A stretch of 64,000 bases of DNA from an uncultured delta proteobacterium (GCA_963804165.1 CAWDPO010000003.1:160001-224000), one strand, 5' to 3'. Counted from the stretch's first letter, positions 35,903 through 39,208 are shown. Translations and numbers: made by a program. The notes: generated by a model not told the origin, from the letters alone.

Positions 35903-36887
35903 TTACCGCCTCGTCTGCTGAAAGAACCCTTCCCGTTCCAACTCTTGCACGAGCGAGGCATCGACGAAGTTGGCTGGATTGGCGCCGCTAGCTTCGCTGC
36001 CTAAACCTTTGAGCAATCCTTTGACACCTTCGAGATCGACGCCGATGGATTTTTGTAGATGCCTCTGCCCGTAGCTGCGGTAGACTTCGGCCAGTATTTC
36101 CGGATCGTCGAGGCAGACGTATTTGGCGAGGATTTTTAGCGCGGCATGTTTGTCGTTGCGAGTTTCTTGCACGGCTTCGTAATAGGCACGTAGGATACGC
36201 AGCACAGTGTCACGACTGCTTTTGATAAATGACCGCCGCGCGCTCATCGGCGAGTTGACGTAGGGAATGCCATAGTCGGCGGCGTCGACCAGCTCGCGCA
36301 GTCCCATCTTGATGCCGCGCAGGTTATTCGGCGCGGAAATCATGCCGCCGTCGACGAAGCCTTTGGCCACCGCCGCCAGCATTTCCGGCATGCCGCCGCG
36401 AATGCCCAACACCGCAAGATCTTTGTTGCGCTGCAGTCCCCACCGTTCGAGCAACAAACTCAATACTAGATCGGGTGAATCACCGAGGTTGCTCACGCCG
36501 ATCTTTTTGCCTTTGAGATCTTCGATCCGGCGGATTTCGGGTTTGGTCATCAGCGAAAAAACAGCGACATTGATGGTATTCGCAATGATCGCGAGGTCGG
36601 CGCCGCGAATTGTCGAGCGCACCACGGAAGACGGGGAGGCGCGGACAAACTGTATTTCGCCGGCGAGCATCGCCTCGATGGCGACACCACGAATGTAGGT
36701 TAACTCCACCTCGACGCCGTGCTTGTCGAAAAAGTTTCGGTCCTTAGCGACCCAGAGCGGCAGCATGGCGCCGCTGATGGAGCTGTAGGCAATGCGGAGG
36801 GGAGCGGCGTGGGCGTGCCACCGGCAATACCGCAGCGAGTGCGAGTATGGCCGATAGCGTCAACTTTAAAGCTCGATGGGTGGTCAT
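35903..36887 (-). CDS. ABC-type substrate-binding protein, NMT1/THI5-like; frameshift in the signal region ~36815
   Basis: MTTHRALKLTLSAILALAAV signal, then LRIAYSSISGAMLPLWVAKDRNFFDKHG, DLKGKKIGV, LVQELEREGFF. Confidence 0.85.
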
Positions 36888-37144
36888 CGGTTGGCGCGCT
36901 TGGGAATATTATCGGGGTGGATTCGCAAAGAGCACCCATGTCCTATCTTTTCCCCGCCTGGACTGTGTCGCAACTCGCACGATCATATGGGTGTCATGCT
37001 GAGCAACGCGAAGCATCTCGCATGGTGAGCTAATGACGAAGACGAGATTCTTCGCCTGCGGCTCATCTATGAAAGCTTTGTCAAGGTATCTGTTAGTCAC
37101 ATATTGTTTTTTCTTCTCATGGTTTCGAATACACCAGTACTTAT

Positions 37145-37271
37145 CGTCCGTGGCAAAGCGTACCCGATGTTATCGGACTCATCTATTCGCCGTCTAAAGC
37201 GGCAGAGAAAAATGCCACAGGGCTGTCGCAATCAGAATTCGGGTCTCAGTGGACCCATGAGCCGCGCGCGC
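37145..37271 (-). ncRNA. Candidate seekRNA/bridge RNA of the IS1111-type element
   Basis: Guides GCGGCTCA and ATTCTGA flank a hairpin and match the insertion target; ATAGATGA matches the donor end; boundaries approximate. Confidence 0.75.
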
Positions 37272-38312
37272 TTAGCCCTGCGTGGACGACATCGGTTCGC
37301 GATAGCTTTCTCCTTTTTTCAACATCCAGAAACTCGCCTCCGCCAAGTGTCGGGCCACGGCCACAATCGCTTTGCCGTGCCCCCGTCTGGCTTTGACATT
37401 TTCATACAGCCGGGCAACGTGTCGGTACTCGCAGCGCTCGCGGTTGAGCACCGCGCTATTGGCCGCTTCGGTAAAGGCCCACTTCAGATAAAGATTCACA
37501 TCCTTTCTCACCCGCCCGTAGCGCACCTTGCCGCCACTGGAGTTCTCCCGGGGTACCAGCCCCGCGTAACTCGCCAGCTGCTCGGCTCGGCCAAAGCGCT
37601 CGATCGTACCGATCTCAGTCCAGATCACCACCGCCAACATCTCACCCACTCCTGGCTCGCTCTGCAAATAAGTCGTCTCGGCACAGGGAGCAAAGGCTTG
37701 GCGCATTTGGCCTTCAATGGTCTTGAGATTGGCCTGCACATGGTCGAGCTCGTCGAGCATCAATCGCAGCGCTTGTTGGGTGTGCGGTGGCAGCTTGGAG
37801 CAAAGCTCTTCGATGATCTGTCGGCCCCGCTTGCCAAAGGCGTCGCTGACGCCGTCGACCTTGAGCCCGTACTTCTCCAGAGTGGCGTGAATACGGTTCT
37901 TGAACTGGGTTCTCTGCTTGCTGAGCACCATGCGGGTGCGCGGCAGCTCGCGGGCATCACGAACCGCAGACGGCGCAATCCACACCGTCGGCAGGGTTCC
38001 GACTCTCTGCAAACGATTCATTCCCTTCGCATCGAGCTTGTCGCTCTTGTTCACGCTGCCGATCATCAGCTTGGCCAGTCGTGCGTTGACCAGTTGCGGC
38101 GATCCTTTCCCCGCCTCGATCTCATCGACTACCCAGTACCAGTTGCCCACGGTCTCAACCGCCACCGGGGTTCCCGGACTCCACTTGTTGGTGAAGTTCT
38201 TAATCGTTCCTCGACTATGCGCCAGTTTACACTCAAAGAGCTTCTGGCCTTGGTCATTTTCTACCCGCGCCCAGGTGTAATGCTTATGAACATCCAATGC
38301 GACGTATTCCAT
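37272..38312 (-). CDS. IS110-family transposase/recombinase
   Basis: YVALDVHK, VAVETVG, KSDKLDA (DEDD RuvC-like); PGVG, ASYAGLVP..NSSGG (Tnp-domain Ser), KAIVAVAR; SD GGAGGAGG. Confidence 0.95.
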   Translation of the reverse strand: MEYVALDVHKHYTWARVENDQGQKLFECKLAHSRGTIKNFTNKWSPGTPVAVETVGNWYWVVDEIEAGKGSPQLVNARLAKLMIGSVNKSDKLDAKGMNRLQRVGTLPTVWIAPSAVRDARELPRTRMVLSKQRTQFKNRIHATLEKYGLKVDGVSDAFGKRGRQIIEELCSKLPPHTQQALRLMLDELDHVQANLKTIEGQMRQAFAPCAETTYLQSEPGVGEMLAVVIWTEIGTIERFGRAEQLASYAGLVPRENSSGGKVRYGRVRKDVNLYLKWAFTEAANSAVLNRERCEYRHVARLYENVKARRGHGKAIVAVARHLAEASFWMLKKGESYREPMSSTQG

Positions 38313-38461
38313 TTGCGATTTCCTCCTCCAGCCGTCAGTCTATCTACCGACGCTGCGGATTTCATCGCTTTCATATTAATCAGAATGACATTAAGACATA
38401 GTCTCGTGACAAGGAAGGGGTTAAGACGATTTTGCGCAGAGTAGATTAATTGCTCGGGACT

Positions 38462-39208
38462 CTAAGCTGCAGCGCTGCTCGCGTCGTATTTCTGCTCTTG
38501 GACGACATAGGCCATGTAAATGCAGTCGGACATGACCCGGCGCATGTTGTTTTTCATCAGCTGGGCGTTGATGCAGGCTTCTTGCAGCTCTTTGGTGTCG
38601 GCGTATTTTTTCAGGATTTCTTTGCGGATCACGCCGTGCTCGACATCGACGTCGGCGTGCAGCTTGTAGAATGTCAAAGCGTCGTCCGGGAACCCATTTG
38701 TAGTGCTTACGAAAGGTATCGAGGTCGCGCGACATCGCTTTGGCGGTGTCGTCGCCTTCGGACACAGCGACGCCGAGCAGCCATGAAGTTTTAAATGCCG
38801 CGTTGGCGAAACTATCGACGGCGAACTTGACGCCGTAGAGCGGTTCGGAGTTTCTCACGAACTCGCGTTCCATTCCCAGACCGACGCAGACATCGAGCCA
38901 GTATTCGGGATGGGGCCCGTGTGATTTGCCGATCAGATCTTCGCCTTCCTCTTCGATGGCTTTCGGCAGCCACATGCGACGCACGTCGACGTGCGGGCAA
39001 TTATAGAGGATCGAATACTCTTTGATCGGTACTTGCTTGGTGAAGTAGTAGCGTTCCTTGGCCCAGCCTTGCAGCTGTTCTTGGTGCATTTGCCATCGCG
39101 AAAAATTGCTTCCCAAGGATGAGGCGGGCGCTGATGATCTTGGCGGTTTGCATCGAAAAAAGTCTGGATGAATTCATCGGGAGCGAGTTTGTGGTCGAGC
39201 TTGAACAT
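38462..39208 (-). CDS. Heme-oxygenase-like di-iron protein (PqqC/CADD/TenA fold); frameshifts ~39085 and ~38685
   Basis: HPWE...EQLQGWAKERYYF, EEEG, HPEYWLD, SEG, FYKLHADVDVEHG (H-x3-D-x2-H). Confidence 0.8.

Follow-up and report, generated by a model that had tools for sequence, protein, structure and literature searches.

An IS1111-group insertion sequence of an uncultured delta proteobacterium with a predicted guide RNA in its 3' end

The insertion sequence, its copies and its landing site

The stretch of DNA analysed here, hereafter the window (64,000 nucleotides from an uncultured delta proteobacterium, GCA_963804165.1 CAWDPO010000003.1:160001-224000), carries on its minus strand an insertion sequence (IS) of the IS1111 group of the IS110 family, which measures 1317 bp when counted with one TG core. 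Alignment of ten copies from the same genome, together with a comparison of filled and empty sites, places the whole element including the TG core at both junctions at 37064-38382, and the IS body at 37066-38380. The transposase (recombinase) gene (37272-38312, minus strand) codes for a protein of 346 aa, in which we found both domains of the IS1111 group: the N-terminal DEDD (RuvC-like) domain (PF01548, DEDD_Tnp_IS110; 4.9e-13) and the C-terminal Transposase_20 domain (PF02371; 2.3e-21). The protein also matches the NCBIfam model NF033542, which bears the NCBI name 'IS110 family RNA-guided transposase', with 233.6 bits against a cut-off of 140. The segment GLVPRENSSG of its translation agrees with the GL-P----S(t)G motif described for the C-terminal domain of IS1111-group transposases (PMC11187229), and P220, G221 and G260 are invariant in an alignment of 11 transposase sequences.

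The gene is flanked by non-coding ends of 206 nt downstream (37066-37271) and 68 nt upstream (38313-38380); this layout, with a long downstream non-coding end, is the one described for the IS1111 group (Siddiquee et al., PMC11187229; Durrant et al., PMC11208160). In transposase orientation the ends read flank-GTCATTC-TG-ATTAATATGAAAGC ... GCTTTCATAGA-TG-AGCCGCAGG-flank. They contain subterminal inverted repeats of 9 bp, within the 7-17 bp range of the group, which are kept in relatives. The left repeat, TATGAAAGC (38367-38375, minus strand), lies 5 nt (ATTAA, 38380-38376) inside the core, and the right repeat, GCTTTCATA (37068-37076, minus strand), 2 nt (GA) inside it.

Ten full-length or near-full-length copies were recovered from the source genome, all in the same orientation at GTCAT(T/G)CTGA sites. 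Six of these (L001-L006) form group A, whose members are 97-100% identical, with L005 ending at the end of its contig. The other four (L007-L010; G000 C36:38381-39732, C41:95439-96765, C17:395899-397250 and C20:85262-86609) form group B, a sibling lineage with ~82% nucleotide and 88% amino acid identity to group A. Some copies are in decay: L006 (C30:69025-70351; 97% identical) carries TGA in frame at two places and its P3 hairpin (see below) is disrupted, and L010 is broken, its transposase match being split with a TAA inside. A further decayed copy, detected as L011 and L012 (C22:28900-29698), has an internal deletion that joins query positions 740 and 970.

In transposase orientation the left target flank of the window copy is GTCATTC (38383-38389, minus strand), followed by the core TG at 38382-38381, and the right target flank, placed by the alignment of copies, is AGCCGCAGG (37055-37063, minus strand), preceded by the core TG at 37065-37064. 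An uninterrupted version of the target site, GTCATTCTGA|GCCGCAGG, is preserved on contig C25, where C25:4942-6926 is 98.6% identical over 1986 bp to the left flank of the copy on C20. The likeness stops exactly at the IS boundary (...GTCATTCTGA), and C25 goes on with GCCGCAGGCGAAGAATCTCG, the same right flank as that of the window copy. The empty site has one TGA and the filled sites have one TGA per junction, with no duplication beyond the core. The ~2 kb that C20:88001-89976 and C25:4942-6926 share, one with the IS and the other empty, stem either from a duplicated region or from two strains binned together (genome contamination 5.03%).

The 14-nt word made of left flank, TG and right flank occurs at four uninterrupted sites in the genome, and the 12-bp target read from the window sequence in the initial annotation, ATTCTGA plus GCCGC, was accordingly recovered intact in the same genome. 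The core assumed there, TCA/TGA, has to be narrowed: L018, L019, L093 and L094 sit at TG|G and not at TG|A, so that the strict core is TG. The left part of the target belongs to a repeat family with 251 GTCATNCTGA sites in the genome (N is C in 101, T in 92, G in 49 and A in 9). In the IS flanks these sites often stand head-to-head around a GCGAAG(A/C)ATCTCG...CGAGAT(G)CTTCGC palindrome, the form of the family being GTCATNCTGA(G)... GCGAAG(A/C)ATCTCG, loop, CGAGAT(G)CTTCGC ... TCAG(N)ATGAC; examples in the window lie at 36990-37063 and 38383-38392. The target repeat is a REP-like palindromic intergenic repeat that serves as the landing pad for both the group A and the group B lineage.

A conserved fold downstream of the transposase gene

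To characterize the downstream non-coding end we derived a consensus structure with RNAalifold from 16 diverse relatives, taken from the same taxonomic family and from metagenome MAGs; the MAGs of relatives are labelled Candidatus Binatia, Nitrospirota/Nitrospirales, Chloroflexota, Planctomycetota, Elusimicrobia and others. The consensus has five helices, arranged in two domains on the transposase-sense (minus) strand. The first domain, predicted to bind the target (37216-37282), comprises an outer stem P1, a stem P2, an internal loop that bears the guides and a hairpin P3. P1 has 9 bp (37282-37274 / 37224-37216), of which eight show compensatory changes, and its 5' strand consists of the last 8 nt of the transposase ORF and the first base of the stop codon. 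In view of these compensatory changes the RNA must start upstream of 37271, the limit set in the initial annotation. The CGCG/TGCG stem named there as closing the target domain is present as the invariant P2 (CGCG/UGCG; 37270-37267 / 37230-37227), but P1 closes the domain as well. P3 (37257-37240), between the two target guides, has compensatory changes in four of six pairs, and within the one genome group A has GGGTC/GACCC where group B has GAGCC/GGCTC, a compensatory difference.

The second domain, the putative donor domain (37163-37215), consists of the linker GCAUUUUUCUC (37215-37205), hairpin 1 (37204-37188), a single-stranded guide and hairpin 2 (37177-37163). A compensatory change is seen once in hairpin 2; the pairs of hairpin 1 never vary, so that its covariation is neutral and speaks neither for nor against it. 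The two hairpins read from the single sequence, GGGTC-CACTGA-GACCC (37256-37241) and GCCG..CGGC (37203-37189), were both found where they had been placed. The GTGGCA/TGCCAC stem that was thought to close the second domain is likewise present (37218-37213 / 37155-37150), but as a closing stem it lacks conservation: it is perfect only in group A, is absent in group B and in other relatives, and competes with P1 for GUG. We also discarded a pairing of the conserved UUCUC with GAGAA after hairpin 2, for which the mean helix length in 39 sequences is 4.31 nt against 4.20 nt with shuffled partners; the window copy has no GAGAA partner for its UUCUC.

Across the alignment, standard pairs occupy 97.0% of the cells against 85.5% in column shuffles (0/500 shuffles as high), and pairing falls to 34-42% when partners are slid by 1-3 columns. 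Changes on both sides are seen in 13 of the 29 pairs. Invariant or frequent G-U pairs (columns 23-69, 33-59 and 96-116) fit the transposase-sense strand only. A covariance model built from the consensus alignment (R1) finds a match directly 3' of the transposase gene in all 80 metagenome homologue loci, three of these matches being cut by contig ends or partial. By comparison, the minimum-free-energy fold of the non-coding end as a single sequence is no better than that of shuffles (z = 0.49), and only the comparative fold is informative.

A scan of 36800-38600 against Rfam 15, with E up to 1, returned no match, nor did R1 match IS4321, three other plasmid IS110-family loci, or the loci L025 and L055, whose proteins are 33% and 25% identical. 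As a consequence, kinship to the experimentally studied seekRNAs is argued from architecture and protein family and not from the sequence of the RNA. Among the relatives, a Nitrospira-labelled one (L042:1201-2232) has one stop codon in its transposase frame, with an RNA and ends that look intact. At L056:1462-1520 and L072:893-951 an isolated target domain is found on its own (model positions 8-66), and in L056 the 5' part of the element follows it in inverted form; these look like the products of rearrangements between IS copies.

Signals for expression were sought at the ends and inside the element. The right end has an outward-facing candidate -35 hexamer, TTGACA (37079-37084, minus strand), and the left end contributes a candidate -10 hexamer, TAATAT (38373-38378, minus strand), of a promoter that would arise only when the ends are joined in a circle; the junction computed in silico reads TTGACA-17-TAATAT. 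TTGAC stands at the same place of the right end in most relatives. Inside the integrated element the internal promoter and terminator scan found no promoter-like site on the minus strand, and the P3 hairpin itself was the one terminator-like site on that strand. Four RNA-library runs share words with the element; they are represented by contigs only, with 90-98% likeness, from related transposase genes. The contigs fall on parts of the transposase gene and its flanks, with none on 37134-37697, and are uninformative either way.

Guide words and the DNA they match

The internal loop between P2 and P3 contains two words that match the target. The 5' side of the loop carries CGCGGCUCA (37258-37266, minus strand), complementary to the top strand of the core and right flank, and the 3' side carries AAUUCUGA (37232-37239, minus strand), complementary to the bottom strand of the left flank and core. 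The reverse complement of the 5' guide, TGAGCCGCG, agrees with the flank TGAGCCGCA at eight of nine positions. Both matches had been read from the window sequence at the outset, and they hold: GCGGCTCA (minus strand, 37265-37258) has its copy in the left-hand plus-strand flank and core at 37058-37065, and ATTCTGA (minus strand, 37238-37232) is the reverse complement of TCAGAAT at 38380-38386. The complement of the top strand stands 5' of the complement of the bottom strand, an order also reported for IS1111-type seekRNAs (PMC11187229). In the second domain a third word, the predicted donor 3' guide AAUAGAUGAG (37178-37187, minus strand), has the same sense as the right IS end and core (ATAGA-TG-A); its match had likewise been recognized, ATAGATGA (minus strand, 37186-37179) being the reverse complement of TCATCTAT at 37063-37070.

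When the 64-kb window is shuffled with its dinucleotides preserved, the three guide words turn up 4.55, 0.96 and 8.33 times, both strands counted. The chance of finding each of them in the 206-nt non-coding end in the right orientation is estimated at roughly 0.007, 0.0015 and 0.013. Chance is hence an unlikely explanation of the matches, and the stronger argument comes from covariation in relatives. All six group A copies have the 3' guide ATTCTGA and are inserted at ATTCTGA (flank plus core), and all four group B copies have ATGCTGA and are inserted at ATGCTGA. Among relatives, the 3' guides ATCCTGA, AACCTGA, CCTCTGA and GGGGTGA are each found at their own identical site, and right-flank matches of 9/9 occur on unrelated targets in L018 (TGGATGCCG) and L022 (TGAGCAGGC).

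We quantified this in two sets of loci. In the first, 17 loci were parsed, and the 12 with both flanks and distinct guide pairs were used, leaving out L027, L048 and L049 (flank missing) and L044 and L051 (duplicates). The 5' guide matched its own flank at 62 of 84 positions (32.3 with shuffled flanks) and the 3' guide at 48 of 60 (29.3). The larger set comprised 97 loci, of which 86 were parsed; the 11 that failed the pattern were dropped, and three implausible left-end assignments were discarded. This set provided 27 distinct guide/flank pairs for the 3' guide, with 22 different 4-mers; the 4 nt that precede TG match in full in 19 of the pairs and at three or more positions in 26. For the 5' guide there were 64 distinct pairs with a mean of 4.72 matches out of 7 (2.48 shuffled). 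It is often imperfect: three pairs match at all 7 positions, 19 at 6, 15 at 5, 15 at 4, nine at 3, two at 2 and one at a single position, which leaves 12 of the 64 at three or fewer. In both sets none of 20000 shuffles was as high as the observed value for either target guide, counts that overstate the significance because the relatives are not independent; the many guide words and the contrast between groups A and B are independent of this caveat. The initial annotation had named covariation of guides and targets across homologous copies as the check on its reading, and guides do change with flanks. The clearest exception is L027, a degenerate copy (frameshifted, left end missing) whose 5' guide matches its right flank at 2/7.

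The predicted donor guide behaves in a similar way. In 71 of 72 loci its UG and the right-end TG are preceded by the same 5 nt (ATAGA in 42, AGATA in 16, AGAGA in 13, one mismatch), and two more variants were seen by eye (AGATT in L023, ATACA in L054); as these approximately five variants largely follow clades, few independent events stand behind the covariation. Across relatives, guide and matching DNA thus vary together for the two target guides and for the right-end donor guide alike.

The left IS end is another matter. That a second donor guide was missing had been remarked as an oddity in the initial annotation, and we looked for it at the expected place, the 9 nt just 5' of the U at the opening of hairpin 1, by comparing this segment with the reverse complement of TG plus the left end. 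In the window's clade (loci from MAGs labelled Binatia, Nitrospirota and Chloroflexota) 0-3 of the nine positions match in 18 distinct pairs. Here the segment varies and the left end is nearly constant, and L016 and L017 have the same RNA with the left ends TTAAT and TTATT. Yet in a sister clade, with transposases ~55% identical, the segment matches at 5-9 of nine positions in 19 distinct pairs, with 9/9 in L107 and L108, and ends in AUCA-U-hairpin, parallel to the CA-U-hairpin of the target guide. Its variable part agrees with the left end at 53 of 95 positions against 38.4 shuffled (2/20000 shuffles as high). As these relatives have a second donor guide, it would have been lost or replaced in the window's lineage. 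A tentative reading, to which we give somewhat less than even odds, is that the window's clade gave up the left-end donor RNA guide that the sister clade keeps, donor recognition being divided between RNA at the right end and protein plus subterminal repeat at the left.

Other candidates for a left-end guide were considered. One, an AT-rich 5-mer 2 nt out of register (AUAUU/AUAAU for the RNA, AATAT/ATTAT for the left ends), was rejected as inconsistent, with L016 and L017 combining the same RNA with different ends and L022 showing the opposite pattern. A search of the whole non-coding end for 6-8-mers that could pair with left-end positions 1-30 gave the subterminal repeat and otherwise only scattered, unconserved matches. 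In L016, L017, L018 and L041 the distal non-coding end has extra complementarities of 6-8 nt to left-end positions 16-30 (e.g. CGGAATAC/GTATTCCG in L016); their positions vary, they are absent in the window copy, and either chance or a second inverted repeat could explain them.

In 60 of 69 loci, among them all nine that have G where the left IS end starts with A, the right target flank begins with the same base that follows UG in the donor guide; this evidence is weak because it amounts to essentially one clade-level event. Such agreement with the target right flank suggests that handshake-type pairing may occur in IS1111-type RNAs too; a tendency of the base after the core in the donor-loop guide to match the other DNA partner recalls the handshake guides of IS621 (PMC11208158). 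It would also fit recognition of the integrated right junction during excision, and Siddiquee et al. inferred recognition of the integrated junction from the finding that the donor requires flanking target sequence (PMC11187229).

These data bear on the function of the second domain. According to one alternative the first domain alone (~67-80 nt) guides, as a short seekRNA, and the second serves for scaffolding, processing or regulation; the protein would read the subterminal inverted repeats, and the target guides would read the flanks of the integrated copy. This agrees with published work on ISEc11, in which an 82-nt seekRNA with target matches only sufficed for transposition and the donor needed target flanks (PMC11187229), with the absence of a left-end donor guide in the window's clade, and with the base after UG, which makes the donor strand no worse a fit to the integrated right junction than to the circle junction. 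Nevertheless, it leaves unaccounted for why the 5 nt before UG track the right IS end in all but one of 72 loci, through three variants and the two seen by eye, why the 5' strand of the same loop tracks the left IS end in the sister clade, and why the second domain is present in all full-length R1 matches. We regard it as unlikely, at something like one chance in eight.

The guide sequences in the subterminal regions of IS200/IS605 elements act as single-stranded DNA, and the words described here could conceivably do the same within the element, in place of an RNA. Covariation of guides and targets, taken alone, fits RNA or DNA, and the RNA-library contigs show no transcript over the region. 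On the other hand, the protein is an IS110-family DEDD recombinase and not an HUH transposase, and the G-U pairs in the stems, which are stable in RNA, are kept in 15-16 of 16 sequences. Moreover, RNAs of family members have been described as co-purifying with the protein and as seen in cryo-EM (PMC11187229, PMC11208158), all of which makes guidance by DNA very improbable. Least probable of all is that the matches are functionless, arisen by chance or as carried-in remnants of targets: each word is short, with several occurrences in the window, and the single-sequence fold is unremarkable, but the idea is already contradicted by the covariation (22 different 4-mers in the 3' guide, each found beside its own flank) and by the shuffle results for both guides, besides the compensatory changes in the flanking stems and the conservation of the RNA in 80/80 loci.

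Proposed mechanism and relation to known systems

From the anatomy of the element, the covariation of its RNA structure, that of guides and DNA, and the empty site, all of which are observed, we consider it probable (about 0.85) that this is an IS1111-group IS whose DEDD/serine recombinase is aimed by an RNA from its own 3' end (seekRNA/bridge RNA). The compact 346-aa RNA-guided recombinase of IS110 type proposed in the initial annotation is thereby supported, for its family by the Pfam and NF033542 matches and for its guidance by the covariation of the guides. In the mechanism that we favour, parts of which (action of the RNA bound to the recombinase, circle intermediate, function of the promoter) are carried over from published relatives, the element would excise as a circle whose joined ends form the TTGACA-17-TAATAT promoter. 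From this promoter the transposase gene would be transcribed and, by read-through, also the RNA, which would then be trimmed and bound by the recombinase. In the target domain the 5' strand CGCGGCUCA would pair with the top strand of core and right target flank and the 3' strand AUUCUGA with the bottom strand of left target flank and core, the two guides together specifying ~12 bp, ATTC-TG-AGCCGC, in the repeated palindromic intergenic element. The second domain would expose AUAGAUGA between its two hairpins for pairing with the bottom strand of the right IS end and core, either in the excised circle or at the integrated right junction. For the left-end half of the donor, recognition by the protein via the 9-bp subterminal inverted repeats is most likely, and strand exchange would take place at TG, without duplicating anything outside the core.

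That elements of the IS1111/IS110 type choose their targets by means of an RNA was reported in 2024 (PMC11187229; PMC11208160). The mechanism has been known since then, and the locus is a clear but ordinary further example of it. With the IS1111 elements studied for their seekRNAs (ISEc11, ISPa11, ISKpn4, ISPst6; PMC11187229) it shares, as these are described, a DEDD transposase of ~340 aa with the GL-P----SG motif, a long downstream non-coding region, subterminal inverted repeats and natural retargeting among relatives. The guide order is also the same if the 'top' strand of PMC11187229 is taken as the transposase-sense strand, and ISPa11 too is described as having a repeated palindromic element as its target (PMC11187229). 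It differs from them in that its outer stem overlaps the end of the ORF and in that its clade is known from sequence alone. The plasmid-borne IS110/IS1111 members found have proteins 22-32% identical to that of the window (best 32.5%; IS4321 22.3%).

The IS621 bridge RNA (Durrant et al., PMC11208160; Hiraizumi et al., PMC11208158) likewise has a target domain and a donor domain, each guide reading one strand on one side of a 2-bp core (PMC11208160). In contrast to the description of IS621 (PMC11208160), the RNA of the window's element lies at the right and not the left end, the guide order is reversed, the window's clade shows only one donor guide, on the right-end side, the subterminal repeats are 9 bp and not 2-3 bp long, and the core is TG and not CT. 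A multi-hairpin loop holds the donor guide, an arrangement that Durrant et al. describe for many IS1111 orthologues (PMC11208160). Given the absence of the left-end guide, the element fits an 'IS1111-type seekRNA / long form' better than a strict IS621 bridge RNA.

What is new here is modest: the single-base split of guides between groups A and B in one genome, a well-sampled clade from uncultivated soil bacteria, and the presence of one clade with a left-end donor guide beside one without, a point that the published supplements may already cover. The sibling lineages form a natural experiment, in which a difference of one guide base goes with insertion of one lineage at the T-variant and of the other at the G-variant of the same repeat, and in which an empty site is preserved. 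The clade adds 80 further loci and 22 different 3' guide words at a distance from all experimentally studied members, and it could be a source of compact recombinase/RNA pairs as well as a test case for recognition of the left donor end without an RNA guide. If the loss of that guide is real, the two clades would be a natural before-and-after pair in which RNA-guided and protein-guided recognition of an end replace each other. Finally, the element resembles IS of the ISPpu9/ISPpu10 type from Pseudomonas (PMC12288879), which as described there insert site-specifically into REP and have a small RNA gene downstream of the transposase; the likeness is one of description, the host phyla and the target sequence being different.
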